Shown piece after piece: positions 1,333 to 19,158 of a stretch of DNA of 26,300 bases. The notes under the pieces are model-generated. The model searched no databases. It worked only from the letters and a program-made list of their open reading frames with translations, and was not told where the DNA came from. Each line of letters begins with the position of its first letter. The first letter of the stretch is position 1. Made by a program: the position numbers and the translations under genes. Location: positions 1-26,300 of the IMG/VR virus record IMGVR_UViG_3300010043_000070. One strand, given 5' to 3'. This DNA is from a virus. Taxonomy: Duplodnaviria > Caudoviricetes.

Positions 1333-1628
1333 GCGACCTCGGCTGCTGGCGCCAAGGCGAGTACATCGTGGTTCGCTACTACGGCTCGGAGCACATGATG
1401 ACCCAAGCCGACTGCGAAGAACTGCTCGCCCACATGCGCCGGATAGCCCTCGAAGGTGCAACCGAGTCCCTTGGCGAGGAATATGCCGAATTGCGCAGGC
1501 GACCGAAGCCAAAGTTCGGTCAACCGTCGACCACCGACCGAAAGGTAGCCCTGGCCATGATGGAGGCCCTTGGGCTGATTGCGAATATCCGCAGACATCA
1601 TGGAGGCACACATGAAGATCGTGATTAG
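1329..1628 (+). CDS. Hypothetical protein (99 aa)
   Basis: ATGA-coupled start; fills the gap before the endolysin. Confidence 0.72.
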   Translation: MSDLGCWRQGEYIVVRYYGSEHMMTQADCEELLAHMRRIALEGATESLGEEYAELRRRPKPKFGQPSTTDRKVALAMMEALGLIANIRRHHGGTHEDRD

Positions 1629-3177: not shown

Positions 3178-3404
3178 AAGTCGATCCTGTCTTCACGTTC
3201 TGGCTCGGTCTGATCACTACGATCCTGCAAGGCATTGCCAGCGGGACTGTACATCTGACTGGCGTTGTTCCAGAAGCGTACATGAATACGGTCACCGGTT
3301 GGATCGGCCTGATCGTATTCATCAACATGTCACTGATGACCGCACTAACCGGTGTGTCGAGTCCTAAAGCTGGTCCACTCGTACCGAAGGATGATAAGTC
3401 ATGA
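3174..3404 (+). CDS. Putative holin (76 aa, two hydrophobic segments)
   Basis: FTFWLGLITTILQGIASG and WIGLIVFINMSLMTALTGV segments, charged C-tail, ATGA-coupled to the endolysin. Confidence 0.7.
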   Translation: MKVDPVFTFWLGLITTILQGIASGTVHLTGVVPEAYMNTVTGWIGLIVFINMSLMTALTGVSSPKAGPLVPKDDKS

Positions 3405-3811
3405 ACACACTTCAGATCATGCAGCTGGCCTTCCAATGGGGGCCGACGATCAAGTCGATCATCGATATCTCGTCTTCCAACGAGGACCTGATATCCAAGC
3501 TCAAAGAGCTAGCGGCACCAGTAGCAGGCCTGCTGGAAACCGAGGGTGCGAGGCTGTTCCCCAAAGCGGCCTCGGCGCTCCACATTGCAGCCGGTGCGAT
3601 CGCCGCGTTCGATCCCAACGTGACGAAGTGGCTGCAAGGCACGCTCAACAATTACTTGAGCCTCGAACCGCCCCTAGTCGTCGATGGTGTCTATGGCGAG
3701 CACACCCGAGACGCAGTAACGAAGCTCCAAGAAAAGCTAGGTCTGACGGTAGACGGTTTCTTTGGGCAGAAAACCCGTCTCGCCTTCGAAGCGGTACTGG
3801 CTAAGCTATGA
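3401..3811 (+). CDS. Peptidoglycan-binding domain protein (136 aa) with no evident catalytic domain
   Basis: C-terminal VTKWLQGTLN...LVVDGVYGEHTRDAVTKLQEKLGLTVDGFFGQKT fits the PG_binding_1 pattern. Confidence 0.85.
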   Translation: MNTLQIMQLAFQWGPTIKSIIDISSSNEDLISKLKELAAPVAGLLETEGARLFPKAASALHIAAGAIAAFDPNVTKWLQGTLNNYLSLEPPLVVDGVYGEHTRDAVTKLQEKLGLTVDGFFGQKTRLAFEAVLAKL

Positions 3812-4936: not shown

Positions 4937-5136
4937 CCACCGTCCCGACCGTCGGCGAGTGCTTCGCCCGCCTTACCGAATACCTCCGCAAAGCCCAAGA
5001 GGAAGCGGCAACCATTGCCCATCTCGAAAACGCCAACGACCAACACGAACAGGCGCTTCGTTGGCTCGCTGTCAGTGAGAACTTCAAGAAGATGCAACAT
5101 AGCCTTATATCGTTGGCCACAAAGAGGCTACAATGA
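4933..5136 (+). CDS. Hypothetical helical protein (67 aa)
   Basis: ATGA coupling at both ends. Confidence 0.72.
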   Translation: MTTVPTVGECFARLTEYLRKAQEEAATIAHLENANDQHEQALRWLAVSENFKKMQHSLISLATKRLQ

Positions 5137-6554
5137 CCACAGAGCAACCCAAGCCCACCGCAGAGCAGACCGAAATCCTCGACCTCGTACACAGCGGAAC
5201 CGATAATATCCAAATCGAGTCCTACGCCGGCACCGGCAAAACCCACATGCTCGGCCTGATCGAGCAAAGCCTCGACTGCCCAATACTTTGTCTTGCGTTC
5301 AATGTCCGGATCAAAGAGGAAATGGAGCAGCGCTTCAGGCGGACCGCGACCGTGCGGACCGTCAATGGACTGGGCCACCGGGTTTGGAGCCAAGCGCAGA
5401 ACAAGAAGCTAACCGTCGACCCTAGGAAATGCAACGGGTTGCTGTCCAAGATAATCAAAGAACTCCCGAAGGTCGAACAGAAGCCTGCTTGGGACTGCTA
5501 CCACGAAGTGCTCCAGGCCACGGCGATGGCAAAGGCCAAAGGCTACGTCCCTGCAAAGTGGGAGGACGCCAAGTGCCTGATTGACGCCGCCGAGTTCTGG
5601 GCCCAGCAAGAGGAGGAGCCGATCGCGCTGGTCGAACGGCTAACGGACAGGCTTCTGGACCAAAGCATAAGGACCGCCTACGATGGGTTTATCGACTTTA
5701 ACGATCAAGTATACATGCCCGCACTGTTCGGAGGAGCATTCCCAAAGTTTCCGGTTGTCTTGGTCGACGAGCAACAAGACTTCAACCCCACGAACTATGA
5801 AATGCTCCGAAAGCTCAGTGGTAGTCGGTTCATATCGGTCGGGGATCCTTACCAATCCATTTACGCCTTCCGGGGCGCGATGCAAAACTGTATGGATCGA
5901 GCTCGGAATGAGTTTTCCATGGCGCCGGCGCGGCTCTCGATTAGCTTTAGATGCCCCGAAACGATCGTAAACAACGTCCGGTGGCGGGTGCCGGCCTTCA
6001 AGGCATTTAAGCCCGGCGGGCACATTCATACCCTAGCTAACATACGCCTCCAAGACTTTGCCGAGGACTCGGCCATCATCTGCCGCAACAATGCTCCGCT
6101 GTTCAAGCTGGCGTTTGAGCTTATCGGGGCAGGCCGCCCGGTGAAGGTGGTCGGCTCGGACATTGGACCGAGGCTGATCGGCATCATGCACAAGCTCGGC
6201 GACCCGGATATGGAACAGGATCTGCTCTTTAGCGCCATCGACATATGGGAGAATGAAAAGCGCGAACGCGGCTCCGAGTCCGCCGCCGACATTGCCGAGG
6301 CCATGAGGGTGTTCGCCCGCATGGGCAGCAATCTTTCCCAGGCAATCGCCTACGCCGAGTACCTGTTCAAGCTCGAAGGCTCGATCCACCTGCTGACCGG
6401 GCACAAGGCCAAAGGCCTCGAGTGGGACATCGTGTACCACCTCGACCGGCACTTGATCCATGACGGCCAGTCCCAAGAGGACAATCTCCGCTACGTTATC
6501 GACACCCGGGCGAAGCAAACCCTGGTCTATGTCAACTCGGCAGGGATCCAATGA
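5133..6554 (+). CDS. Superfamily 1 (UvrD/Rep-like) DNA helicase (473 aa)
   Basis: Q motif TAEQ, Walker A AGTGKT, Walker B VLVDEQQD, motif III GDPYQSIYAFRGA, IV LSISFRCP, V HKAKGLEW, VI NLRYVIDTRAK. Confidence 0.95.
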   Translation: MTTEQPKPTAEQTEILDLVHSGTDNIQIESYAGTGKTHMLGLIEQSLDCPILCLAFNVRIKEEMEQRFRRTATVRTVNGLGHRVWSQAQNKKLTVDPRKCNGLLSKIIKELPKVEQKPAWDCYHEVLQATAMAKAKGYVPAKWEDAKCLIDAAEFWAQQEEEPIALVERLTDRLLDQSIRTAYDGFIDFNDQVYMPALFGGAFPKFPVVLVDEQQDFNPTNYEMLRKLSGSRFISVGDPYQSIYAFRGAMQNCMDRARNEFSMAPARLSISFRCPETIVNNVRWRVPAFKAFKPGGHIHTLANIRLQDFAEDSAIICRNNAPLFKLAFELIGAGRPVKVVGSDIGPRLIGIMHKLGDPDMEQDLLFSAIDIWENEKRERGSESAADIAEAMRVFARMGSNLSQAIAYAEYLFKLEGSIHLLTGHKAKGLEWDIVYHLDRHLIHDGQSQEDNLRYVIDTRAKQTLVYVNSAGIQ

Positions 6555-6898
6555 GCCTTCCTACAACCCGGCTTGCATACGCCGACGCATACGACGCCTT
6601 CGATCAGGCCCTGGCAGACAGCGTCGGCATCCGTATCCAGTTCGACACCGAGGAGCAGGCAAAGCATTTCCGGTTCCGCCTGAACTATGCCCGCCAGATG
6701 GACCGGGACGATAATCGAAAAACCTACGCCCCCGATCATCCACTGTTCGGTAAGAGTGCCTACGACAGGCTAGTCGCCCGGATCAGACGGGAGCAGGAAG
6801 ACGGCAAATGGTACCTTTACCTAGAGACTTCGCTAAACCCGGATCAACTCGTGATCCAATCGCTAGCGAAACTATACGAGAAGGAACCTGAAGAATGA
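6551..6898 (+). CDS. Hypothetical protein (115 aa)
   Basis: ATGA coupling at both ends. Confidence 0.8.
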   Translation: MSLPTTRLAYADAYDAFDQALADSVGIRIQFDTEEQAKHFRFRLNYARQMDRDDNRKTYAPDHPLFGKSAYDRLVARIRREQEDGKWYLYLETSLNPDQLVIQSLAKLYEKEPEE

Positions 6899-7143
6899 TC
6901 TCAGAGCAGGAAGCCTTGACGCTTTGGTACCGCGCCCTAGAGCAGCCCTTGGGGCTTGCCATTCGGACCGATAACCAGCGGAGCCTGATGTCCAGACTCT
7001 ACCACGTCCGGGCCCGGGAGGGCGATGAGGATCTTTACGCCCTTCAATGCCTGCTTGCGCAGGACCCCGAATGGGTGTTCCTCAAGCGGATCGAGTTCTC
7101 GGAGATCCGCCCCGTGACGGAGGCTGACCTTGACTCGCTCTGA
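6895..7143 (+). CDS. Hypothetical protein (82 aa), probable paralog of the preceding gene
   Basis: ATGA-coupled; shared AL...G-h-x-I...RL-x-x-x-R pattern. Confidence 0.78.
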   Translation: MISEQEALTLWYRALEQPLGLAIRTDNQRSLMSRLYHVRAREGDEDLYALQCLLAQDPEWVFLKRIEFSEIRPVTEADLDSL

Positions 7144-7297
7144 CCTGCGCAAGGTCACCCTGAACCTCTACGACGCCGACGTGGCTGAAATGGAGCGCCT
7201 GTTCGGCTGGGGCTGGTCCGCGGAGCTACGCCAGCTTCTGCACAACTACTTGGAGAAACGACGTGAGCGACACAGCACCCGAGGATTGGACCGATAA
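7130..7297 (+). CDS. Putative ribbon-helix-helix DNA-binding protein (55 aa); absent from the ORF track
   Basis: TTG start with GGAGG at 7119-7123; MTRSDLRKVTLNLYDADVAEMERLFGWGWSAELRQLLHNYLEKRR...: alternating strand KVTLNL, helix, G-x-S turn, helix; fills the 7144-7262 gap. Confidence 0.7.
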   Translation: MTRSDLRKVTLNLYDADVAEMERLFGWGWSAELRQLLHNYLEKRRERHSTRGLDR

Positions 7298-7460
7298 CGA
7301 CATAAAGGAAATCATCCGCGCCCAGCGTGAAGCCCGCATACGATTTACCTCAGGAGGCAAAGCCGTCAAGGAAAAGCCCAAGGCCGCTGACACCAGCGCG
7401 CTCGAAGAAGAGTTCGCCCTGCCCAAAGCCCCGGTCGCGAATATCCGAAGGAAACTCTGA
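7263..7460 (+). CDS. Hypothetical protein (65 aa)
   Basis: GTG start after GGAG; TGATG coupling to the nuclease. Confidence 0.7.
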   Translation: MSDTAPEDWTDNDIKEIIRAQREARIRFTSGGKAVKEKPKAADTSALEEEFALPKAPVANIRRKL

Positions 7461-8446
7461 TGCTCGACCAACCCGAAGATTCGCCGTTCCTGTCCGGAAC
7501 CAACATCCAATTCGCCTGGGACTCAACGAGCCTCGGCTGGGCCAAGACCTGTCCCCGGCTCTACTACTACAACATGCTCTGCGGCTATCGGCCCAAAGAC
7601 GAAAGCGTTCATCTCCGCTTCGGCATCGAGTATCACACCGCGCTCGAAGAATACGACTACTTTCGGGCCGCCGGCGCCGATCACGACGAGGCTGAGCACC
7701 TTGCCGTGGCCGATCTCGTCGAGCGACTCAAGGACTACAAAGACCCGGACGGCGAGTACGCAAAGCCCTCGGAGAAGGTCAAGACCAAGGAAAACCTCCT
7801 CCGAACCGTGATCTGGTACCTTGAGGAGTTCAAGAACGACGCCGCCCAAACCTACATCAAGACCGACGGCAAGCCAGCGGTGGAGCAGAGCTTCCGGTTC
7901 GAGCTCGACTTCGGCCCCCAAGCAACACCAGAAACAAGGCACAGCACAAACAAGGGCATCGTCGCAGACCAGCCGTATATCCTCTGCGGCCACCTCGACC
8001 GGATCGTCAACTACAACGACGGCCTGTTCATCATGGACCGCAAGACCACGACACAGACTCCGGGCCCGTACTACTTCAAGAAGTACGACCCCGATAACCA
8101 AATGACCCTGTACGCCTACGCCGGCCAAGTTGTCCTGCGATCCCAAATCACGGGAGTGCTCATCGATGTTGCTCAAGTTGCTGTTAACGGCAGCAAATTC
8201 GTCCGAGGTGTTTCGTACCGAAGCCCAGATCAGATCGAAGAATGGGTTCGTGACCTGCACGTTCATCTTAGGACATTTGAGCGGTATGCCGTCGAAGGAT
8301 ATTGGCCTCAGAACGATACCGCTTGTGATAAGTTCGGAGGCTGTCGCTTTCGTGGGATCTGCTCTAAGTCCCCAAGCTCACGACAGATGTTCCTCGACAA
8401 CGACTTCACACAGGAGGAGCCATGGAACCCGCTCAAGGTAAGGTAA
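7460..8446 (+). CDS. PD-(D/E)XK RecB/Cas4-like exonuclease with a probable Fe-S staple (328 aa)
   Basis: N-terminal CPRLYYY, FGIEYH, GHLDRI...IMDRKTT, QMTLYA, C-terminal CDKFGGCRFRGIC (1+3 Cys). Confidence 0.9.
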   Translation: MLDQPEDSPFLSGTNIQFAWDSTSLGWAKTCPRLYYYNMLCGYRPKDESVHLRFGIEYHTALEEYDYFRAAGADHDEAEHLAVADLVERLKDYKDPDGEYAKPSEKVKTKENLLRTVIWYLEEFKNDAAQTYIKTDGKPAVEQSFRFELDFGPQATPETRHSTNKGIVADQPYILCGHLDRIVNYNDGLFIMDRKTTTQTPGPYYFKKYDPDNQMTLYAYAGQVVLRSQITGVLIDVAQVAVNGSKFVRGVSYRSPDQIEEWVRDLHVHLRTFERYAVEGYWPQNDTACDKFGGCRFRGICSKSPSSRQMFLDNDFTQEEPWNPLKVR

Positions 8447-8646
8447 GGTTCAAGCTCGAACTCGGCAAGTTCCCGGTCAAGGGGATACGGCGCACCGCCA
8501 CCGGCTTCGAGTTCGCACTTGCGCTGCCGGGGCTCGTGCTTGTGATCCCCGTCTCGTCCCACGCCGATGTCCGCGAAGGCGACCTGCTAACGCTCTATAC
8601 CGAGGTACTCGTCAATGCCCCTCCTCAGCCAACATCAATCCAATGA
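8422..8646 (+). CDS. Small beta-rich hypothetical protein (74 aa)
   Basis: AGGAGG SD at 8412-8417; bridges the nuclease and ATPase genes. Confidence 0.68.
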   Translation: MEPAQGKVRFKLELGKFPVKGIRRTATGFEFALALPGLVLVIPVSSHADVREGDLLTLYTEVLVNAPPQPTSIQ

Positions 8647-9511
8647 CTACACCAAGATGCTTCTGGAAGGCGATAGCGGAAGCGGTAAGACAGGGTCTCT
8701 CGCATCCCTTGTTGCGGCCGGCTATAAGCTTAGAATCCTCGACTATGACAACGGCCTGGAGTCTCTCAAGCAGTATGCCCGAAAAGAATGCCCCGACAAA
8801 ATCAACAACGTCGAGTACCGAACCCTCAACGACAAGCTAAGGGCAACTCCGTCCGGCCCGGTTATCGAAGGGGTGCCGCGGGCATATCCCGACGGCCTCA
8901 AGATGTTGGACCACTGGAAGTACGGCGATGTCGATCTCGGCGTGCCGGCAGAATGGGGGCCCGAGTGTATCTTTGTGCTGGACTCGTTGACCTTCTTCTC
9001 CGAGGCGGTCTTCGATTGGTGCGAGCCCCTCGTCGCTAAGGGCCGGCCGGCCGATAAGTACGACAACCGGACGGTCTACTACAACGCCCAGTCCGCGGTC
9101 GAGAAGTTCCTACAATTCCTCAAGAGCGACTGGTTCCAAACCAACGTCATCGTGATCTCGCATATCAAGTACGTGGACAATCCCGACGGAACAAAGAAAG
9201 GCTACCCGACAGCGATCGGCTCAGCCATTTCCCCAACGATCCCGAGTTACTTCAACTCGGTCGCCCTATGTCAAACTGGCCCGGGAGGTAAGCGCACGAT
9301 AAAGACCGCCTCAACTGCAATGATCGACCTAAAGAACCCGAAGCCCTTCGCCATGCTTCCAAGCTACCCGCTGGAAACAGGGCTGGCCGAGTTCTTCAAA
9401 GTTCTGAGAGAGCAAGATGGAGAAGCAATCGAAGCAAAGCGAACAGAACCGAAACCAACCGAACCAAAGACACTCATCCCAGTGAAGCGAACCCTTGGAG
9501 TTAGAAAATGA
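8615..9511 (+). CDS. P-loop ATPase, AAA_24/Sak4-like single-strand annealing protein (298 aa)
   Basis: MLLEGDSGSGKT, ILDYDNG, Walker B FVLDSLT, VIVISH; lies between the exonuclease and the SSB-like gene. Confidence 0.85.
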   Translation: MPLLSQHQSNDYTKMLLEGDSGSGKTGSLASLVAAGYKLRILDYDNGLESLKQYARKECPDKINNVEYRTLNDKLRATPSGPVIEGVPRAYPDGLKMLDHWKYGDVDLGVPAEWGPECIFVLDSLTFFSEAVFDWCEPLVAKGRPADKYDNRTVYYNAQSAVEKFLQFLKSDWFQTNVIVISHIKYVDNPDGTKKGYPTAIGSAISPTIPSYFNSVALCQTGPGGKRTIKTASTAMIDLKNPKPFAMLPSYPLETGLAEFFKVLREQDGEAIEAKRTEPKPTEPKTLIPVKRTLGVRK

Positions 9512-9972
9512 AGACGAGAATCGAGCGCCCGAACTTTACCGACATCCTCGGCATGCATTCGGACGACATTGATCGGCCGAAGCCGTTGCCGACAGGGACC
9601 TACTCTGCCGTTGTGCAGGACATCAAGGAAGGGATCTTCGAGAAGTCCGGCACCCCGGTTGTTGAGGTGGTCTTCGGCCTCACTGGCGTCATTGACGCCG
9701 TTGACGAGGAGGCCCTGGCCGCTGCCGGCGGTCTCAACGGTAGGACCATTCGGCACACCTTCTGGCTCGACCCGACGAACCGCGACGGCGGGCACCGCGC
9801 TGCCTGGGAGTTGAAGAACTTCCTGGACAACTGCGGTGTCGAGCCGGGCATCATGGGCGCCCGTGTCGAGGCGGCCGTGAACGCCGAGGTCGGCATCGAA
9901 CTGGTCCACGTCCCAGACAAACGGAACACCGGGAATCTCTATGCTAACTATTCCCGTTCTGTGAAGCTGTAA
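9508..9972 (+). CDS. Putative single-stranded DNA-binding protein (DUF669-like OB fold, 154 aa)
   Basis: PKPLPTGTYSAVV start motif, beta-rich body, LKNFLDNCG, position after the Sak4-like gene. Confidence 0.7.
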   Translation: MKTRIERPNFTDILGMHSDDIDRPKPLPTGTYSAVVQDIKEGIFEKSGTPVVEVVFGLTGVIDAVDEEALAAAGGLNGRTIRHTFWLDPTNRDGGHRAAWELKNFLDNCGVEPGIMGARVEAAVNAEVGIELVHVPDKRNTGNLYANYSRSVKL

Positions 9973-9976
9973 CCAG

Positions 9977-10089
9977 ATTGTGGGGCAGGGAGCAACTAAG
10001 CCCAGTATGCGACTGTCCCCACAATGCCCGGTGGTGCAGAGCCATCGAAATCGGCCGGGAGTGCGGTTGGCCCCGTTCCTCCCGGCCGG
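9977..10089. other. Structured intergenic element with three consecutive stem-loops
   Basis: ATTGTGGGGCAG/CTG(T)CCCCACAAT (9977-10025); CGGTGGT/GCCATCG (10029-10047); CGGCCGGGAG/CTCCCGGCCG (10052-10088); no U-tract. Confidence 0.7.
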
Positions 10090-10106
10090 CGGCCCAAGAG
10101 GAATCA

Positions 10107-11150
10107 ATGCCCGATCTATTCCTGATCGGTGAAGCCTGGGGCGCTGACGAAGATCGCGAGAAGGCCCCCTTCGTCGGCGCTGCCGGCTATCACCTGACCC
10201 AGATGCTGGCCCACGCCGGCATCCGCCGCACCGATTGCTACCTGACCAACGTGTTCAACTTCCGGCCGCCGCTGAACGACATCTCAGCGGTCTGCGGCCC
10301 GAAGTCCGAGTCCATCGAAGGCTACCCGCAGCTTCTCACATCACGCCCAACATACAAGCACTGGAGAGGGGGATATGTCCGAGCCGAGTTCCAGCCCGAG
10401 CTCACCCGGCTGGCAGCCGAACTGGTGGCAGAGAACCCAAATCTGGTGGTTACTCTGGGTAATACGGCAATGTGGGCATTACTTGGTAAGACAGCAATAT
10501 CCAAATATCGGGGAACTACCGCCTTATCAACTCACACTGCGACTGGATTCAAGGTTCTTCCCACGTATCACCCTGCTGCAATCATGCGGCAATGGGAGCT
10601 ACGCCCCATCACGGTTATTGATCTTGCCAAAGCCCAACGAGAGTGTGCGTTTCCAGAAATCCGCAGACCAGAGGTAATGATCTATGTCCCGGAAACCGTC
10701 GAAGAACTCCAAGACCTCGCAACTGGAACTCTTGCTAAAGCTGAGCGCCTTGCAATCGACATTGAGACTAGCGGAAGCCAGATTACATGCATTGGATTCG
10801 CTCCCCTCAAAGGTCTTGCAGTCGTTGTGCCAATCCATGACTATCGCCGATCTGGACGGTCTTATTGGCCATCTCTGGAAGCAGAGTGCGCAGTGTGGAA
10901 AATCATACGTAATGTTTGCCAACGAGAGAGACCGCCTAAGGTCTTCCAGAATGGCCTCTACGATATTGCCTTTCTTTCGCGATCGTACGGAATCAGAGTT
11001 CGAGGAGCCGAGCACGATACCATGCTCCTCCACCACGCTCTACAGCCCGAAATGCTCAAAGGACTAGGATTCCTCGGGTCGGTCTATACAGACCACGGGG
11101 CATGGAAGCAGGAAAGGGAAAAGACATGGACAATCAAGAGGGACGAGTGA
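10107..11150 (+). CDS. Uracil-DNA glycosylase-like (family 4) domain fused to the N-terminal part of a DnaQ-like 3'-5' exonuclease; N-fragment of a split DNA polymerase (347 aa)
   Basis: IGEAWG...PFVGAAG, YLTNV, VVTLGNTA, PTYHPAA (UDG); AIDIET (ExoI), FQNGLYD (ExoII), HDTMLLHH; no ExoIII; AGAGGA SD before ATG 10107. Confidence 0.9.
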   Translation: MPDLFLIGEAWGADEDREKAPFVGAAGYHLTQMLAHAGIRRTDCYLTNVFNFRPPLNDISAVCGPKSESIEGYPQLLTSRPTYKHWRGGYVRAEFQPELTRLAAELVAENPNLVVTLGNTAMWALLGKTAISKYRGTTALSTHTATGFKVLPTYHPAAIMRQWELRPITVIDLAKAQRECAFPEIRRPEVMIYVPETVEELQDLATGTLAKAERLAIDIETSGSQITCIGFAPLKGLAVVVPIHDYRRSGRSYWPSLEAECAVWKIIRNVCQRERPPKVFQNGLYDIAFLSRSYGIRVRGAEHDTMLLHHALQPEMLKGLGFLGSVYTDHGAWKQEREKTWTIKRDE

Positions 11151-11281
11151 AGTGCCCAGAGTGCGGATTCGAGATGGTCAAGGAAGTAGATGGCTGGATC
11201 TGCAACGAGTGTGGCCACGAAGAACCGAACTTCGACGACGGGGACGACGACGACGACGAGGAGGAGATCGAATGGCCATGA
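11147..11281 (+). CDS. Zinc-ribbon microprotein with acidic tail (44 aa); absent from the ORF track
   Basis: GTGA-coupled start; MKCPECGFEMVKEVDGWICNECGHEEPNFDDGDDDDDEEEIEWP; stop overlaps the next ATG. Confidence 0.78.
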   Translation: MKCPECGFEMVKEVDGWICNECGHEEPNFDDGDDDDDEEEIEWP

Positions 11282-11475
11282 TCAGCAATGACAAGTACAC
11301 AGAACTCGGTCACCTATGCAAGACGGCGAGGGCCGGAAACCTTGTGGTCGACGCCTTTGCTGCCGAACTCATTGGCGAGGGCTACCCTGTGAGCAAGGCA
11401 ATCCGGGATATAATCTTCGAGCAATACTCTGATCTACAGCTTGGCAAAATGTTCGTCGAATGGTGCGACCAATGA
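11278..11475 (+). CDS. Hypothetical protein (65 aa; alternative start at 11272)
   Basis: GAGGAG SD, ATGA coupling at both ends. Confidence 0.68.
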   Translation: MISNDKYTELGHLCKTARAGNLVVDAFAAELIGEGYPVSKAIRDIIFEQYSDLQLGKMFVEWCDQ

Positions 11476-11675
11476 AAGCTCTACTCGATGTCGTGTGGAA
11501 CAGGCACGGCTGTTGCCATCCGTGCCACATATGTCGATGGCAGTTTGGATTCCTATCGAGAAGCTTTTGGGACATTTCCTACTATCTCGTCGGGCTCAGA
11601 GGCAGGTTATCCTATCGCAAAAGCAAGGGGAGCGTAGACGTTGCCAGATACATTAGACTCAGAGGTTGGAGATGA
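11472..11675 (+). CDS. Basic hypothetical protein with a CCHPCHIC cluster (67 aa)
   Basis: ATGA coupling at both ends, linking to the polymerase start. Confidence 0.6.
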   Translation: MKALLDVVWNRHGCCHPCHICRWQFGFLSRSFWDISYYLVGLRGRLSYRKSKGSVDVARYIRLRGWR

Positions 11676-13189
11676 AAGTCTACAACACCGCCGAGCTTCA
11701 ACCTGGGGACATCAACTCCCTAACCGAGAAGAACTGGATCTACAATGGACTCGACTGCGCAATCACCGCGGAAGTGCTTGAAGTGCTGCTCCCGCAACTT
11801 GATAATGCTACCGCCAAAACGTATAGCTTCTCACTGGATCTACAGGCGCCGGTGCTCGAAATGCGCCTACACGGCGTACGAGTGGATACCGCCCGTCAGG
11901 CCGAAGTCGTGGAGGAATACTACAACCGCCTCGACCGGCTCGAAACCAACCTTGAGCGAATCGTCCGAGAAGGCTGCGGGTTCGCCGGCTTCAACTGGCG
12001 ATCCAACCCAAACCTGAAAGAACTGTTCTACGACCGGCTGCGGATTCCGGTCATCAGATACCAGGGCCGGCCAACAGTCAACAGGGGCGCCCTCGAAAAG
12101 ATGGAGGCGTACCCGATCGCCCGGCCGATTGTCCGATGCCTCGAAGCTATGCGGGAGCTCAGCAAAAAGATCTCACTGCTCAGTACCGAAATCGATCCTG
12201 ACGGCCGAATGCGGACCAGCTACAACATCGGGGGGACCACGACCGGAAGATTATCTTCGAGCTTCTCGGAGTTCGGGACTGGGACCAACCTACAGAACAT
12301 CGAGGAGTCTCTTCGCTCCATCTTCATCGCCGACCCCGGAATGAAGATGGGTTACTTTGACGCCGAACAGGGAGAATCCCGTGTCGTTGGAGCCATCGAA
12401 TACAACCTCTTCGAAGACGGACGATACCTTGACGCTTGCGAAGGCGGCGACCTGCACACTTCTGTGGCAAAGCTTGTGTGGCCAGACCTACCTTGGCCGG
12501 GCACCCCTAGCAGTGACCGTAAGTTTGCGGAACAGCCGTATTATCGACATTACGATCGACGCTTCATGTGCAAGAAAATTGGTCACGGCACTAATTACGG
12601 CGGTAAGCCAGGGACACTTGCCAGTCAGGCTAAGGTTGATCCTACATTAGTCGAGGAGTTTCAGCCCAAGTACTTCAAAGCCTTTCCGGCCCATCAGGAA
12701 TGGCACAAATGGGTGGCCCGCGAGCTCCAGCAGACTGGGGTGCTGGTCTCGCTGGCCGGGCGCAAGCGGCACTTCCTGGGCCGCCGCAACGATCCCGCCG
12801 TGCTTCGAGAGGCGATCGCCTACGACCCGCAAGGATCGCTGGCCGATATCGTGAACCAAGGCATGCTTCAGGTCTGGCGAGCCGGAGATTGCCAACTGCT
12901 CATGCAGATCCACGACGCGATCGTCGTCCAATATCCGGAGGGGAAAGAAGACCGGATCGTACCAAGAATATTAAAGCAACTCGAATTTCCCATCGAACTT
13001 CGGGGAGGCCGAAGGTTCGTCATTCCATACGGCTGCGCAACCGGATGGAACTGGGGAAAATTCGAGGAGGGGAGCAATCCAAATGGCCTCAAAGCCTACA
13101 AGCCTGCGGATAAACGGACACGCCAACCGGAAACTGCCCTCTTGGATCGAGGGGTTCGTGGAGTACACAAAGGACTTGGAGTCGCCTGA
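11672..13189 (+). CDS. polA: Family A DNA polymerase, C-fragment (ExoIII + polymerase domain, 505 aa)
   Basis: WIYNGLDC (ExoIII), TTTGRLSS, NLQNI, motif A YFDAEQGESR, motif B RFMCKKIGHGTNYG, PQGSLAD, motif C MQIHDAIV. Confidence 0.95.
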   Translation: MKVYNTAELQPGDINSLTEKNWIYNGLDCAITAEVLEVLLPQLDNATAKTYSFSLDLQAPVLEMRLHGVRVDTARQAEVVEEYYNRLDRLETNLERIVREGCGFAGFNWRSNPNLKELFYDRLRIPVIRYQGRPTVNRGALEKMEAYPIARPIVRCLEAMRELSKKISLLSTEIDPDGRMRTSYNIGGTTTGRLSSSFSEFGTGTNLQNIEESLRSIFIADPGMKMGYFDAEQGESRVVGAIEYNLFEDGRYLDACEGGDLHTSVAKLVWPDLPWPGTPSSDRKFAEQPYYRHYDRRFMCKKIGHGTNYGGKPGTLASQAKVDPTLVEEFQPKYFKAFPAHQEWHKWVARELQQTGVLVSLAGRKRHFLGRRNDPAVLREAIAYDPQGSLADIVNQGMLQVWRAGDCQLLMQIHDAIVVQYPEGKEDRIVPRILKQLEFPIELRGGRRFVIPYGCATGWNWGKFEEGSNPNGLKAYKPADKRTRQPETALLDRGVRGVHKGLGVA

Positions 13190-14297
13190 GATATGCCGGC
13201 GCTGGACGGCCATCGGGACCCTTGCGGCGGTGATGCAGCAAAAGCTATCCGTGACCGTCGGCTCGGGGATAATCTGGCCAAACATGTACATTTGGCTGGT
13301 GTCGACCCCAGGGATCGGGAAGTCCATTGCGATCAAGGAAGCCCGGAAGTTCATCCAAGACCTCGACAAGATCTACATCGCGCCGACCAACGTCTCGTCC
13401 GCGTCGCTGATTGACTTCGTCGCCGAGGCCCGGTGTATCCTGACGCCGGTGCCGGGCCCGGCGATCCAGTACAACTCCGCGATCCTGCTGCCCGACGAGC
13501 TAATGGCCTTTATGGCCACCTATGACACCCAGATGATAGGGCTGCTGACCACGCTGTACGACACCGATGTGCCCTACGGCGAGGACAAGCGGACCCTAGG
13601 AACCAAGCATCGAATGGAGCGCCCCCAGCTGAACATGATTGTTGGCACGACCCCGTCGAACATCATGACCTATGTTCCCCAGACCGCCTGGGACCAAGGG
13701 TTCACGTCCCGAATAGTCTTGGTCTGGGCGACCAAACGCAAGGACGACCGTGATATATTCGCCGTGACCGCTCGGACCAGATCCGCGGAGCTTGAGCACG
13801 ACATCCGGGTCATCAATTCGACCGTCGGCAAGTTCGACATGGAGGAGTCCTTTAAGCAAAAGGTTCGAGACTGGCGGGCCGCGGACTATCCGCCGGCCCC
13901 AACGCATCCGAGGCTGACGCATTACCTTCCCCGGCGGCTGGCCCACTTTTTCAAGCTCGCTATGGTTAGCTCGATCGACCGGGGGCCGAGCTTGGTACTG
14001 ACCATGGCTGATTGGGAGCGGGCGACCAAGTGGCTGTTCGAAGCCGAGGCCACGATGCCGATCATCTTCGAGCAGGGGATTACGCACTCGGACACCGGGG
14101 CGCAGAACGAACTGGCCCATTTCATCAGATCGCAGAAGGGCGAGATCTCCGAGACTCAGCTGGTTCGAAAGGCCCGGACTCTGCTGCCAGTCTACGCCGT
14201 GACGAAGACCATTGAGGTGCTTGAGAAGTCCGGCGTGATCCAACAGATCAGGTACGATGTCAAGGCCCGCCAGAAGATCTTCAAGGCCGGTGCTTGA
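13083..14297 (+). CDS. DUF3987/YfjI-like P-loop AAA+ protein, probable replicative helicase (404 aa)
   Basis: PNMYIWLVSTPGIGKS (Walker A), LLPDEL (Walker B), GFTSRIVLV (Arg-finger-like), winged-helix-like C-terminus; GGAG SD at 13071. Confidence 0.8.
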   Translation: MASKPTSLRINGHANRKLPSWIEGFVEYTKDLESPEICRRWTAIGTLAAVMQQKLSVTVGSGIIWPNMYIWLVSTPGIGKSIAIKEARKFIQDLDKIYIAPTNVSSASLIDFVAEARCILTPVPGPAIQYNSAILLPDELMAFMATYDTQMIGLLTTLYDTDVPYGEDKRTLGTKHRMERPQLNMIVGTTPSNIMTYVPQTAWDQGFTSRIVLVWATKRKDDRDIFAVTARTRSAELEHDIRVINSTVGKFDMEESFKQKVRDWRAADYPPAPTHPRLTHYLPRRLAHFFKLAMVSSIDRGPSLVLTMADWERATKWLFEAEATMPIIFEQGITHSDTGAQNELAHFIRSQKGEISETQLVRKARTLLPVYAVTKTIEVLEKSGVIQQIRYDVKARQKIFKAGA

Positions 14298-17200
14298 CCT
14301 CCGCGGTGCCGTGCCACAGGCCGCCGAGCAGGCTGCGCCGCCGGTCGTGTGACCAAGGGGTCTGAACCAGCCCATGCGGGTGTTCGAGGTCTTGGTTGTA
14401 GTTGATCAGGAACCGTGCCGAGCGCCCCAACTGCATCGGGAATCCGGTCACCACACCAGCCAGTGCCGCGGTGTCCTCGACGAGCTTTCCCATATTTCGG
14501 TGGCTCAGCGGGTCGCGTTTGTTAAGGTCCCGCGGCGCCTGAAGGATGTTGTGGATCTCCGTGCCCATCAGACCCAAGCTCGGGTCATGGCCACCGAGTA
14601 GCGCATGAGCCACGTCGCGAACCACGGGCACCGACGAGGCCAAGCCACCGCCGACGACCTTGGCCGACCAGGCGCCCCAGGATTCGCGCTCTTGGTTGGT
14701 CAGCGGCGTGACGAGTTCCTCAACGATCGCCGGTGCCAGCACGTATGAGAATAAGAGCATCGAAATCCTTGGCACGTCCTTGGCGGCTTCTTTTAGGTCG
14801 CCGGCGTAGGCCTTCTTCGCCGCATCGGCCGAACGCCATGCGAGCTCATATTGGCGCTGGAAGATGTGGCTGAAGAACCCATACAGCGAGGTGAACCACT
14901 GGCTGAGTCCGCCCCGCCGCATAAGTTCTGGTCGCGAAGACGGGAGCATCGATCCGTGGGCTTGACGAACAACAAGGTCCGCCTGGTCCACCGCAACGCC
15001 GTGGAGCTTATCGTCGGTGATGTCTTTGCCTTCAGCGGCCAGCCGTCGTAGCTCACGGTCATAGGCTGCGAGCCATAGCGGCCGCGCTGACGCCGCGTCG
15101 GACGTTGCTACCATCCACGAGCCGAAATAGGCCATTTGCTGGCGCCATGTTGGTTTTCCCAGTGCCGAGGCGACGCCGCCGCCAAAGGTCTCAGCGTACA
15201 ACGGGTGCCGGCTCCGCATGAACTCGCTGGACTCATCGATGAACCTGTTCACGCTGGCGCCCCGACGCAGGCCCCCGCTGAACATCTGGGACATGGCTTG
15301 CACCATTCGGTGCGGCCCGACCTCGGTTATCGAGTTGATCATCGCCGTCGAGAAGTGCTTCATCACGGTCCCGGGGTTGACTCCGATCAGGCTCGAAACA
15401 AGATTCGTGCGCAGGGTCTCGATGACCTTCGAGGTAAGCGCCCCGTTCAGCGTATCGTGATTCTTCTGGTTGGCCATGTCGTCGAGCCATTGCTTCGACA
15501 TATTGTTCCACCGCTCGCCCCAGGTCCGGATTACCGCGTTCTGGAAGTTATTGCTTCTCAAGGCCTTGCCGGCTTCCTTGATGAATGGGTCCCAGGCAAC
15601 CCGATGGAGCATCTGCGGGATCTGGTTCGTGAAGTTGTTAATGTTGAGATCGACCGGGTAAATTGCTCCAGTGCGTTCTCTGGTGAATTTCCTCGGCACT
15701 GAGGCACGGATGTAGGGGAGTTCCTCCTGCTGGGCTTCTATGGTGTTAGGGGCCCGCCGAAGTGGGTCGGACCAAACGTGGGCATAGCCTCCATCGTAGG
15801 TCTTGTGTGGGGCGCGGATCTGGCGGTTCTGGAGTTCCTCCACGGGCAGGCCATTCTGCGACCGGACCATCTGGTCATCGAGGTCTTTGATCCGTCGGAG
15901 GATCTTGTGCAGCCCGTCGGCGAACTCGAAATGCTCGGGCTTGGCGACCCGAAAGACCTCTGCCTCCAGCGCCCGGCCATAGGCGTCCTGGGCTTCACGG
16001 TCCGTGATCCCAGCCCACAGAGCTTCGCCGCGGTAGAGCTTTTCCCAATTACTGTGGGTGCCCATGTTTATGATAATGCGGACTAGATTGCCGACGTTCA
16101 TGTCCAGCGGCGTGGTGCGATTAACGCCGAGAACCATTGGGATAGAGACCCGGTCTTTCATGCTGAACTTTGGGAGCTTCGCTAACTGCTCGCCGACCTC
16201 ACGGCCGAGCCTTCGTTCGTAGGCCGCGGCGGCTGCGCTGGGTTTGCCAAACGTATTCGTGAACACCCCATTTCGGGTATCGCCGCGGTCGAGGCGCGAA
16301 AGCCAAGCTTCGAATTGCATCAGCTGGGCTAGACCGGACTCAAGGGTGTCTATAGTCTTGCCGAACAGGGTCTTGTTGTAGGGCTGGTCGCGGCGCCCGA
16401 ATGTTTCGAGGAGGTTTATGAAGGCCTGCTCGACGCGGCGCCGGTCGCGCTTCTCGCCCTTGACGATGATGTTGTTTTCGTCCCGGGCGGCGTGCTCCAT
16501 CGATTTGAATGTGTTGTGAACCGCCTCAAACTCCTCGAATGTCAGGTGATCGACGTTCGCCAGAAACTGCGGGTCCCGCAAGAAGTCGGCAACGTACAGG
16601 TGCGGCTGCTCGGTGGCGATTTTGTCTTTGTAGAATGCTTCGAGGTCTGGGCCGCTCACCATCGAATCGAACTGCTTCTGGAGATCCTCCGGACTCCGGT
16701 CGACGAACAGGCCCACCTTGGTCATGATCTGGTGGATGAAGGCCATATAGTCGTGGCCGATCCCGGCCCGCTCCCGGTTGGAATTCTTCTTTGCGGCGGC
16801 ATCAAAGACCTCCCGCATGGATTCGTATTTCTTTGCGAGGTTCGCCAGATGCAGCGCGGCCATGTTTCGCATCCGGGCCTCCAGTGCACCGGCGGCGTTG
16901 CCAGCGAGGAGTTCCCTCTCAAGACCCCGGGCCGCGAACTGAGCGCCGAGCATGAGCCTTTTCGATGAGATCGTCCTAACCGGCATCTTGTCGAACGCGA
17001 CCTGTATGCCGCGCTTGAAGGTTGGGTAATCTTCGAGGTCGACTCCGAGAGACTTGCCGAGGTTTAACACCTGGGCGTGCAGCCGCTCAAGGATCGTGGG
17101 GGAGTACACGAACGATTCCATCTCCCGGACGATGTTTCCTTCGAGCGGGCCGAACTTTTCCTCCATGCGGGCCTCGACCTCGGCCTCGATGGTCCGGCTG

Positions 17201-19158
17201 CGCCACTCATCAGGGCCGATCCCATGTCGGCGCCGGATCTCTTCCATGTGGCGCAGATCGTTGAGCATCGCTTCTGCGGACGGGTAGCCGAAGGCATTGG
17301 CGAGGTCCTCAGGCTTGACGCCTTTGCCGAGTTCCTTAGAGAGAAACTCCTCGGGGATCCCCTTCATCTGCTCGCCGGTCAGATCGTCAGTGTTGATCTT
17401 GTACCTGATTCGCCGGATTGTCCCTTCTCGAATCACGCCCTGGCGTAGGTAGTTGTCCAACGCCACATCGGATCGATCGTCGATTTGCTCCTTGACTTCT
17501 TTGCGGATCTTGAGGGCTTCTTCTTTCCATTCTTTGGTCTGCCGGGCCCGGGCGATTCGCTCTTGCTGGCGACGGAGCCAGGCCTCGTCCTCGGCGTCTT
17601 GCTTGGCGATCTTCTCGTCGTAGGCCTCCCGGGCATCCTTTGGAAGGGTCTCGCGGATGATGTCGTCGATGCCGGTCACAGTCTTCTCGTCAAGGCCGGC
17701 AGCGCGCTTAACGATGTCGAGCACGGCTTCGGCCAGGGTCTGGACGGGCTTCGCAGCCTCAGCCTCCTCGGCCTTTGGAGGCTCCGCCTCTTTGAGCTTC
17801 TCCCCTTGATCGACCGAGATCCCATCCCGCGAATGGATTAGGTGATCGGCAAGCTCGTCCTGAAGCGTCTCGGGAACCCGAGTCACCCATTTGTTCAGCG
17901 GGATCTCGATGCTTGAAACCGTCCCGGGCACGAACCCTTGTACGACCTCTTCGATGTCGCCGAGCTTGCCGTCACCGGGCCGGGGGAATTCGCCCTCCGG
18001 ATAGACAAGGCGCAGGCCATCGGCCGAAAGCGCATGGGTCTTGTCGCCTTCGAGAAGGCTTGCCATTGCCTCAGGCGAGCGCTGGTACGTCGGCCGGGCC
18101 CGGATTTCCGTGACTAAGGTCTTATAATCCTCGGCGCTCTGCTTCGCGTCCTCGGTGTAGGCCTTGTCTGTGGTCTTGTCGGCTCCCGGCGGTGGCTTCT
18201 CGCCGGCCCGGAAGAATGCCGCATGAGCGCCGCCAAGCAGGCCACCAACCAAGCCCGAAGCGATGGCCCGTTCGAGATCAGGCTGATATGTCGCGGCCGG
18301 GTTGTAGAACTCCTTGGCGATGGCCTGGTTGATCGCCTCCTGGCCTTCGCCGACGGCGGTCATGGTCACGGCGCCGATGCCGGCTTTCTTAGCGAGGCCG
18401 GCGGTCCGGCCGATGGCGCCCAAAGGCAGCACCCCAAGGATCGCACCAGTGGCAGCGCCCGCAGCGAATGGGGCACCCCCAGGCTTGCCAGCGGCCTCAG
18501 CGGCCTTAAGCTGCTCCGAGCCGGACACCAAGCCCATGAACGCACCAGCCGTGCCAAGGGCAGCGACTTCTGGCAACAGCGCCGCCGGGGCGATATCGAG
18601 CAGGCCGCCAACCAGCCCGCCGATCCGTGCCGAGATGCTTCGCTGCTCGGCATCGGACATTGGGACCAAGTCCGTCGTGGCCTGCTGGAGCCGGTTGGCG
18701 ATCGCCCTCATCTCGGCCGAGCCGGACAGATACCCAAGGGCGTCAAGGGCGCTGGACCCACCCTCGCCCATGCCACGGGCAACGCCTCGGGCAAGCAGGC
18801 TGTACCATGGACGTTCGGTGGAGGCCAGGTACCGGTCATAGTGCTGGCTCACCTGTGCGAGCCCGCCTATGTCATCGTTGGAGATCTTGGCGTGCATGGG
18901 ATTGGCGCCGAGATACCGCTGCACCCGGGCATCGTTGGCTATGATGTCGTTGTCCAGCGCGGTTTTGTAGGTCCGCTCGAAGGCGCCATCATCGCCGTAG
19001 ATAAACTGAGGCTGGAGGCCGGTTTCGCGGCCGAGCCGTAAGGCCTTCGCCGCCTCGTCCGGGTCGGCCTCTTGGGCGCCTTGGTTGTACATCTGGATGG
19101 CAGCGGTACGACCGCCGAAGGCTTGGCGCCAAAGATTGAGTTCGTCGGGAGTGGCCAT
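14281..19158 (-). CDS. Large internal virion / DNA ejection protein (T7 gp16 position, 1625 aa)
   Basis: Very long Ala/Gly-rich helical ORF with hydrophobic Gly/Ala segments, last in the tailA-tailB-GNAT-internal protein series. Confidence 0.8.
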   Translation of the reverse strand: MATPDELNLWRQAFGGRTAAIQMYNQGAQEADPDEAAKALRLGRETGLQPQFIYGDDGAFERTYKTALDNDIIANDARVQRYLGANPMHAKISNDDIGGLAQVSQHYDRYLASTERPWYSLLARGVARGMGEGGSSALDALGYLSGSAEMRAIANRLQQATTDLVPMSDAEQRSISARIGGLVGGLLDIAPAALLPEVAALGTAGAFMGLVSGSEQLKAAEAAGKPGGAPFAAGAATGAILGVLPLGAIGRTAGLAKKAGIGAVTMTAVGEGQEAINQAIAKEFYNPAATYQPDLERAIASGLVGGLLGGAHAAFFRAGEKPPPGADKTTDKAYTEDAKQSAEDYKTLVTEIRARPTYQRSPEAMASLLEGDKTHALSADGLRLVYPEGEFPRPGDGKLGDIEEVVQGFVPGTVSSIEIPLNKWVTRVPETLQDELADHLIHSRDGISVDQGEKLKEAEPPKAEEAEAAKPVQTLAEAVLDIVKRAAGLDEKTVTGIDDIIRETLPKDAREAYDEKIAKQDAEDEAWLRRQQERIARARQTKEWKEEALKIRKEVKEQIDDRSDVALDNYLRQGVIREGTIRRIRYKINTDDLTGEQMKGIPEEFLSKELGKGVKPEDLANAFGYPSAEAMLNDLRHMEEIRRRHGIGPDEWRSRTIEAEVEARMEEKFGPLEGNIVREMESFVYSPTILERLHAQVLNLGKSLGVDLEDYPTFKRGIQVAFDKMPVRTISSKRLMLGAQFAARGLERELLAGNAAGALEARMRNMAALHLANLAKKYESMREVFDAAAKKNSNRERAGIGHDYMAFIHQIMTKVGLFVDRSPEDLQKQFDSMVSGPDLEAFYKDKIATEQPHLYVADFLRDPQFLANVDHLTFEEFEAVHNTFKSMEHAARDENNIIVKGEKRDRRRVEQAFINLLETFGRRDQPYNKTLFGKTIDTLESGLAQLMQFEAWLSRLDRGDTRNGVFTNTFGKPSAAAAAYERRLGREVGEQLAKLPKFSMKDRVSIPMVLGVNRTTPLDMNVGNLVRIIINMGTHSNWEKLYRGEALWAGITDREAQDAYGRALEAEVFRVAKPEHFEFADGLHKILRRIKDLDDQMVRSQNGLPVEELQNRQIRAPHKTYDGGYAHVWSDPLRRAPNTIEAQQEELPYIRASVPRKFTRERTGAIYPVDLNINNFTNQIPQMLHRVAWDPFIKEAGKALRSNNFQNAVIRTWGERWNNMSKQWLDDMANQKNHDTLNGALTSKVIETLRTNLVSSLIGVNPGTVMKHFSTAMINSITEVGPHRMVQAMSQMFSGGLRRGASVNRFIDESSEFMRSRHPLYAETFGGGVASALGKPTWRQQMAYFGSWMVATSDAASARPLWLAAYDRELRRLAAEGKDITDDKLHGVAVDQADLVVRQAHGSMLPSSRPELMRRGGLSQWFTSLYGFFSHIFQRQYELAWRSADAAKKAYAGDLKEAAKDVPRISMLLFSYVLAPAIVEELVTPLTNQERESWGAWSAKVVGGGLASSVPVVRDVAHALLGGHDPSLGLMGTEIHNILQAPRDLNKRDPLSHRNMGKLVEDTAALAGVVTGFPMQLGRSARFLINYNQDLEHPHGLVQTPWSHDRRRSLLGGLWHGTAEVKHRP

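Follow-up and report, generated by a model that had tools for sequence, protein, structure and literature searches.

The 26.3-kb virus record IMGVR_UViG_3300010043_000070, analysed here over its full length and called the window, comes from a soil metagenome (one run) and has an estimated completeness of about 54%. On its plus strand it carries a family A DNA polymerase (PolA) encoded in two genes: an upstream one, subunit N, in which a uracil-DNA glycosylase (UDG)-like domain is followed by the first part of a 3'-5' exonuclease, and a downstream one, subunit C, which holds the third exonuclease motif (ExoIII) and the polymerase domain. Three open reading frames (ORFs) lie between both. The features of the region are the following:

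10107..11150, plus strand: subunit N, 347 aa, family-4 UDG-like domain and N-terminal part of the 3'-5' exonuclease (Pfam PF03167, PF01612)
10758-10769, plus strand: ExoI, DIET (D218, E220)
10944-10964, plus strand: ExoII, FQNGLYD (N282, D286)
11130..11150, plus strand: C-terminal tail of subunit N, T-x-K-x-D/E
11147..11281, plus strand: gap ORF a, 44 aa, zinc ribbon and acidic tail (codon score 0.33; weak zinc-ribbon and PHROG matches)
11278..11475, plus strand: gap ORF b, 65 aa, orphan (codon score 0.26)
11472..11675, plus strand: gap ORF c, 67 aa, doubtful gene (codon score -0.17; 4-nt overlaps at both ends)
11672..13189, plus strand: subunit C, 505 aa, new N-terminal head, ExoIII helix and family A polymerase domain (PF00476)
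11672..11692, plus strand: N-terminal head of subunit C, M-K/R-I-I-x-T
11741-11755, plus strand: ExoIII, YNGLD (Y24, D28), its Tyr being residue 24 of subunit C

An initial annotation, made from the letters of this DNA, had placed ExoI at 10758, ExoII at 10944 and ExoIII at 11741, 24 residues into the polymerase gene, with a gap of about 520 nt between the genes. All these coordinates were confirmed, the distance from the subunit N stop (TGA, 11148-11150) to the ATG at 11672 being 521 nt. The C-terminal end of subunit N reads WKQEREKTWTIKRDE. As also claimed there, both genes have start signals of their own, with Shine–Dalgarno-like purine runs before the subunit N start at 10107 (aagaggaatcaATG) and before the subunit C ATG at 11672 (gaggttggagATG). 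A single Logan contig, from the probable source run and thus not independent of the record, covers positions 10763-13300 with 0 differences.

Pfam assigned residues 3-165 of subunit N to the UDG domain (PF03167, E 8e-22) and residues 208-336 to DNA_pol_A_exo1, the latter match halting at profile position 136 of 173; in a fused relative (P0001), the same profile was covered from 7 to 170. The AlphaFold2 model of subunit N alone had a mean predicted local distance difference test (pLDDT) value of 92.8, with the C-terminal tail below 50. In subunit C, residues 82-440 matched DNA_pol_A (PF00476, E 2e-35), and the model showed a short extended head and then a long helix (17-42) carrying Tyr24 and Asp28, superimposing on Klenow from Klenow residue 472 (Z 32.2, root-mean-square deviation 4.1, 417 aligned). 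Because the exonuclease profile halts in subunit N, and the ExoIII helix and the Klenow alignment start subunit C, the cut must lie inside the exonuclease domain. The signatures D-x-E of ExoI, N-x-x-x-D of ExoII and Y-x-x-x-D of ExoIII are all present and invariant, divided over two genes; three of the four carboxylates of the exonuclease are in subunit N, as is a candidate domain for sensing uracil. D218, E220, N282 and D286 were kept in 66/66 distinct subunit N proteins, and Y24 and D28 in 77/77 distinct subunit C proteins, in agreement with the earlier statement that the catalytic residues are intact.

Subunit C has motifs A, B and C of family A polymerases, with their Asp, Lys and Asp, on a Klenow-like fold; D230 and K301 were found in 76/77 proteins (one gap) and D415 in 73/77 (four gaps). 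At the position equivalent to 762, where Taq and E. coli have Phe, it carries His305 (motif B, KKIGHGTNYG, window 12572-12601), and His was present there in 76/76 aligned split proteins and, by pattern, in 74/124 fused relatives (42 unassigned). The accessible text of two papers names Phe, Tyr and Leu alone at this position (PMC10201439, PMC9069017), and a survey that kept just Phe, Leu or Tyr (PMC9069017) would have lost the His-bearing polymerases. Among the related loci described below, L060 and L072 showed, some 450 nt past the polymerase stop, a second match to the C-terminal 36 residues (47% identity), which suggests a duplicated gene end around an insert. In L039 (706-2266) the polymerase subunit is broken after about 42 residues, and in L005 (6523-7650) it ends early; both may be assembly errors.

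The three ORFs of 44, 65 and 67 aa tile the gap with 4-nt overlaps, as the initial annotation had described, but its view of three coupled microgenes stood for two of them only. The codon score per codon was 0.24 ± 0.12 in frame (minimum -0.05, 93 scoring windows) and -0.28 ± 0.11 off frame (186 scoring windows), so that ORF c, falling in the off-frame range, is not coding-like. ORFs a and b are likely real passenger genes. For ORF a, one homologue was found; it occupies the corresponding slot in L020, the nearest relative. For ORF b, family and homology searches returned no relative, and for ORF c no family or atlas match was obtained other than one 9-residue match, results that do not prove either to be a non-gene. 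No RNA folding signal was detected in 11476-11675 (z -0.01).

Recurrence of the break among related phages

The split point was mapped in homologous loci, as had been suggested for checking the initial annotation. A total of 183 loci were mapped, the window included, and 24 of them, without one half, were set aside; in 155 of the 159 loci with both halves the gene was split at this same point, and the other four were fused. As the loci had been retrieved with split proteins as queries, this proportion is not a frequency in nature, but the repetition of the same break is more than chance. Some contigs had been fetched twice, and the set reduces to 126 distinct junctions. Across these junctions, gaps as short as -4 nt and as long as 1357 nt were found, and the three reading frames were represented by 33, 38 and 55 junctions; this supports the claim of two polypeptides and led us to reject a frameshift or bypass. 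No insert (gap of 3 nt or less) was present in 38/126 junctions, an insert longer than 60 nt was present in 86/126, and in 30/126 the genes were directly coupled (gap of -4, -1 or 0).

The nearest cultured relative for both halves is the Caulobacter podophage Kuura (39% and 36% identity), a plaque-forming phage (PMC9959647). It has the same break, with the halves annotated as Kuura_029 ("hypothetical") and Kuura_026 and two other genes in between, and the accessible text of its description (PMC9959647) makes no mention of a broken polymerase. Labels such as "hypothetical" or "uracil-DNA glycosylase" for the first half explain this annotation blind spot. In a profile scan of viral contigs, 546 relatives were confirmed among the first 600 matches, and about 1400 matching stretches were estimated. 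The best 120 near-length protein matches, out of a total of 4619 that may include stand-alone UDGs, were all 335-366 aa long and showed 48-65% identity, and fused relatives reached at most 42% (best 120 of 212 long matches). The split has persisted throughout a deep phage clade that is very common, and for which Kuura provides a cultured host-phage pair.

Separate trees were built for the two parts, C and N, from 40 of the 126 split and 45 of the 124 fused rows each; both placed the split rows on one side of a branch with a single change (Shimodaira–Hasegawa-like approximate likelihood ratio test, 99). L006, with an ambiguous base, and L161, with an over-long C frame, were left out of the alignments. 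The split form is likely one clade among the fused UDG-PolAs, derived by a single fission.

Both sides of the break end in conserved new termini. The tail T-x-K-x-D/E/G closes subunit N in 114/126 junctions, the head M-K/R-I-I-x-T opens subunit C in 120/126, and the ExoIII Tyr falls at position 23-25 of subunit C in 124/126. Neither motif was matched in the 120 fused junctions that could be parsed out of 124. Across junctions, the tail Thr is encoded by all four codons, which points to selection at the protein level. The K-R-D codons of the tail often double as the Shine–Dalgarno site of the next gene, a match of at least 4 bases being found in 71% of subunit N ends versus 17% at random. The distance between the DTM Asp and the ExoIII Tyr was 64-69 residues in 88 split pairs versus 40-56 (mode 49) in 120 fused proteins (4 of the 124 were not parseable), so that the split form has about 17 extra residues. 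The break falls in a loop of already variable length in the fused relatives. It marks a spot at which the PolA exonuclease fold naturally tolerates interruption, of use for engineering split or switchable proofreading polymerases.

The content of the gap is far less constant. Heuristic selection yielded 108 gap ORFs from 86 gaps (5 of which gave none), and these ORFs formed 87 unrelated clusters, 76 of them singletons. Pfam identified nine HNH endonucleases (seven above the cut-off), one EndoVII and one weak GIY-YIG among them, and the other cargo included a deoxynucleoside monophosphate kinase, a T7 gp5.9-like protein, zinc ribbons and domains of unknown function (DUFs). Polymerases 98-99% identical carry different cargo; L021 and L022, at 99% identity, have gaps of -4 and 225 nt, respectively. 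On a 106-row tree, cargo presence required 31 changes versus a mean of 30.7 after shuffling, and the boundary upstream of subunit N is equally gappy (more than 250 nt in 60/99 loci versus 55/126 at the split). The small genes of the gap are likely to be interchangeable passengers. As an observation apart, the T7 gp5.9-like gene, encoding a RecBCD inhibitor-like protein, occupies the split slot at L091:4756-4998 (PF25708, E 1e-13).

No endonuclease gene lies in the gap of the window. A profile built from slot members detected HNH genes in 11/126 junctions and, outside the split slot, seven times downstream of the polymerase (89 loci with flank) and once before subunit N (92 loci). On the tree they are scattered, the 10 nuclease-bearing rows of 106 requiring 10 changes, as in shuffles. 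Their presence fits repeated arrival at polymerase boundaries and does not reveal the origin of the break or date the fission. Insertion of a homing endonuclease as the original cause of the fission is a possibility that we regard with some doubt.

Probable assembly of the two subunits and alternative explanations

Multimer prediction had been proposed as a check of the initial annotation, and its outcome agreed with the expectation. With paired alignments (86 rows), the complex of N and C scored 0.90, and the best of three controls 0.08; the mark for this score was reached by 116/157 solved complexes and by 2/215 mismatched pairs. Between runs, the contacts agreed by at least 95%, the partners had pLDDT values of at least 84, and the interface comprised 229-243 contacts. 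In these models the ExoIII helix packs on the exonuclease half, the confident interface involving residues 216-218 and 220 (ExoI), 279-281 and 283-285 (around ExoII) and 301-316 on the N side, and residues 1-7 (the new head) and 20-40 (the ExoIII helix) on the C side. The contact of the new head would be the part least likely to derive from likeness to solved structures.

That ExoI and ExoII are kept on one gene and ExoIII on another is sensible only if they meet. In the related PolA of phage Tt72, mutation of the ExoIII Tyr or Asp leaves 3-4% of the exonuclease activity, and each of the matching exonuclease residues is needed, with 3-8% of activity left (PMC9324360). The split is real and old, and likely functional. 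The gene is split between ExoII and ExoIII lineage-wide, and considering the invariant residues, the fixed break, the conserved new termini and the predicted complex, we find it quite probable that the two proteins form a stable 1:1 enzyme, an obligate heterodimer. Its proofreading site would be completed in trans, as the initial annotation had put forward. In such an enzyme, both genes would be expressed from one message, often with translational coupling, and helix 17-42 of subunit C would dock in the exonuclease half of subunit N, bringing Tyr24 and Asp28 beside Asp218, Glu220 and Asp286 to build the usual two-metal site, with the head of subunit C (residues 1-7) enlarging the interface. 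The UDG-like domain, with the family-4 Glu, Asn and His kept, would ride along and probably remove template uracil as the fused SP15-like enzymes do. A single fission in a length-variable loop, leaving about 17 extra residues, would have generated the pair, and the new gene boundary would later have become an ordinary slot for passenger genes, including HNH endonucleases.

Several points weigh against such an assembled enzyme. D286 and the N tail (338-347) lie outside the confident contacts, and the prediction includes no metal geometry. The pass of the complex may stem from likeness to solved single-chain PolAs; as halves of split genes tend to pass in this way, the score speaks for a fit as in Klenow and not for binding. 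The tail of subunit N may not serve in assembly, since it diverges in Kuura and part of the constraint on it comes from ribosome binding. The trees were run in quick mode, rooted at the midpoint on 85 selected rows and accompanied by long-branch warnings, which makes one origin of the split likely rather than proven. In the UDG-like domain, the motif-A Pro is replaced by Trp or Tyr in 58/66 proteins, the family-4 cysteine before RPP is absent (Leu/Phe for the Cys of NVVKCRPP), and the N-terminal segment is missing, the protein beginning 2-3 residues ahead of the first strand.

These last changes make the UDG activity uncertain. By sequence and by fold (Foldseek) the domain belongs to family 4, its best matches being family-4 UDGs, and with T. 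maritima UDG as alignment reference, E9 (63/66), E15 (63/66, Asp in the other three), N48 (66/66) and H155 (64/66) are kept, as is F22 in at least 90% of subunit N proteins. The cysteines which we take to be the ligands of the family-4 Fe-S cluster are mostly missing. Motif A here is GEAWG, which is also found in 36/124 fused relatives and therefore predates the split. SP15-like fused enzymes excise template uracil through a conserved Glu and His (PMC13697223), to which E15 and H155 would correspond. On these grounds we lean slightly towards uracil excision by subunit N, with a DNA-binding or processivity role as the alternative. A subgroup of subunit N proteins (L046, L077, L078, L086, L089, L005, L011, and others) has 25-30 additional residues inserted in this domain, behind residue 39.

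The initial annotation had further supposed that proofreading and the UDG-like module are detachable and possibly tuned by the subunit ratio or by the gap microproteins. Two separate genes could indeed be expressed unequally, subunit N is predicted to fold well alone, most junctions have an insert of more than 60 nt, and ORF a recurs in the slot of L020. However, the junctions without insert, the dispersion of the gap ORFs into mostly singleton clusters, the different cargo of near-identical polymerases (L021, L022) and the equally gappy boundary upstream of N speak against it, and the large predicted interface and the directly coupled junctions fit a fixed complex better than a detachable module, so we judge this explanation improbable. 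Because the cargo varies, is placed at random on the tree and has a neighbouring boundary just as gappy, the regulatory reading is unsupported, and gap ORFs as conserved regulators were rejected on the same grounds; the insert-free junctions and the non-coding-like score of ORF c also speak against tuning by microproteins. Equally improbable in our view is an association of the halves for structural reasons, or partly independent action with subunit N serving as a free-standing uracil glycosylase, proofreading being weak or absent. The split could distort the site, D286 is outside the confident contacts, and in the staphylococcal CCPol three exonuclease helices are retained with another protein as structural partner (PMC10201439), but without catalysis it would be difficult to account for the invariance of all exonuclease carboxylates and of the ExoIII Tyr in proteins that share as little as about 38% identity.

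The opposite possibility is that splicing of the RNA, bypass by the ribosome, read-through or trans-splicing of the protein yields a single polypeptide. In its favour, the stop of the first gene is in frame with the start of the second and immediately adjacent to it (gap 0) in 5/126 junctions. Group I introns occur in SPO1-type polymerase genes, which would also favour it. Against it stand the range of gap lengths in three frames, with or without insert, the small number of extra residues and the steady start 23-25 codons before ExoIII. In addition, the Rfam scan of 9900-13300 found no intron, with two chance matches below the gathering score, and the intein domain search of both proteins (E 0.01) found none, as the initial annotation had anticipated. 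An intron or structured RNA in the gap was rejected on these Rfam matches and on the flat folding signal, and we hold the single polypeptide to be very improbable. An assembly error or a recently broken, dead gene might be suspected in a single uncultured contig with about half of its genome, but the homologue survey, with 126 distinct junctions, a cultured phage with the same break and invariant catalytic residues, already refutes it, leaving it a practically negligible chance. A broader scenario than the trans-completed enzyme, in which a large, undescribed podovirus lineage of soil and freshwater would form the two-metal site only in the assembled pair, held by terminal peptides that stem from the landing of an endonuclease, and could use the supply or exchange of subunit N to switch editing and set its mutation rate, seems rather unlikely to us.

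Gene neighbourhood

The window encodes an endolysin, a replication module on the plus strand, and podovirus-type virion genes on the minus strand. The polymerase genes are flanked by the following:

5133-6554, plus strand: UvrD-like helicase, in the upstream replication/recombination block (5133..9972)
7460-8446, plus strand: PD-(D/E)XK exonuclease, same block
8615-9511, plus strand: Sak4-like annealing protein, same block
9508-9972, plus strand: 154-aa protein without family match, with a single-stranded DNA-binding protein-like role guessed from its position
13083..14297, plus strand: DUF3987 primase/helicase-like gene, downstream, overlapping the 3' end of the polymerase gene

The DUF3987 frame shares 107 nt with the end of the polymerase gene (window 13083-13189); its projected start is upstream of the polymerase stop in 93/104 loci (median -80 nt), and ten loci have inserts of about 400 nt at this boundary, several of them HNH. 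A large amidase endolysin is encoded at 1579-3177; it combines a peptidoglycan-binding domain with an additional domain at the C terminus (phrog_33367; weak Cel124_C) and is followed by a second, small peptidoglycan-binding protein at 3401-3811. The minus strand encodes, at 14281-19158, a virion-type protein of 1625 aa that includes an LPD22 polyvalent domain. A scan of 9900-11800 for sigma-70 promoters and terminators gave 0 matches. Subunit N was the sole PF01612 match in the window record (about 54% complete), with no stand-alone second exonuclease there.

Comparison with known systems

The order of UDG, exonuclease and polymerase is that of the single-chain UDG-PolAs (SPO1-like, N4-like cluster 17, and SP15-like phiLo/YerA41; PMC10201439, PMC13697223), with which the window protein also has the family-4 UDG fold in common; SPO1 gp31 and the Microcystis phage Mel-JY34 were tblastn matches, and PDB 9qhs (9qhs_A) was a fold match. 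In contrast to their one chain, there is here a stop at 11148-11150 and a separate start at 11672, giving two polypeptides with 852 aa in total versus 1122 for the phiLo chain, and the window has His at the 762-equivalent and GEAWG as UDG motif A. In the text accessible, Czernecki et al. (PMC10201439) describe single-chain UDG-PolAs and present the S-SBP1 split as a separation of exonuclease and polymerase. In a search of open-access full texts, with subscription papers and supplements outside its scope, no account of a PolA broken at a point between ExoII and ExoIII came up.

PolA is also made from two genes in the S-SBP1 group (PMC10201439), PaP3 and phiEco32, and in the last two small genes sit between the halves, as here. 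Translation of their exonuclease genes revealed ExoIII in all three (YCIQD, YCLQD, and YCEQD, respectively). Because their ExoIII stays in the exonuclease gene, the cut of the window is different: theirs falls between domains, in proteins without a UDG domain, whereas that of the window is within the exonuclease domain and divides the catalytic residues of proofreading. This position of the cut sets the window apart from the known split replicases. Another split T7-like cyanophage polymerase has been reported, the accessible text not stating the position of the cut (10.1101/325100). The staphylococcal CCPol, with MP as its predicted partner protein, is a PolA chain that starts at the last exonuclease helices (PMC10201439). 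No gene encodes the rest of the exonuclease domain for CCPol, whereas in the window that part is encoded upstream and its catalytic residues are intact. The PhiKZ replicase is made up of two gene products in a stable 1:1 association (PMC13648687), and belongs to family B and not to family A.

The best working analogy is NrdA-a/NrdA-b of the Aeromonas phage Aeh1, in which insertion of an endonuclease divided the active-site residues, the new tails are essential, and the composite site from the split gene can be fully active (PMC3045599). Both systems have active-site residues on two genes, new terminal tails and a composite site, predicted in our case, although Aeh1 concerns another enzyme in one phage, whereas a whole lineage is involved here and the window gap holds no endonuclease. 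The requirement for the tails, demonstrated for Aeh1 NrdA, would extend to the window, where the head of subunit C is part of the predicted interface. The split polymerase offers a second case, this time lineage-wide, in which to ask how an enzyme broken in two is rescued by new peptides at its termini.

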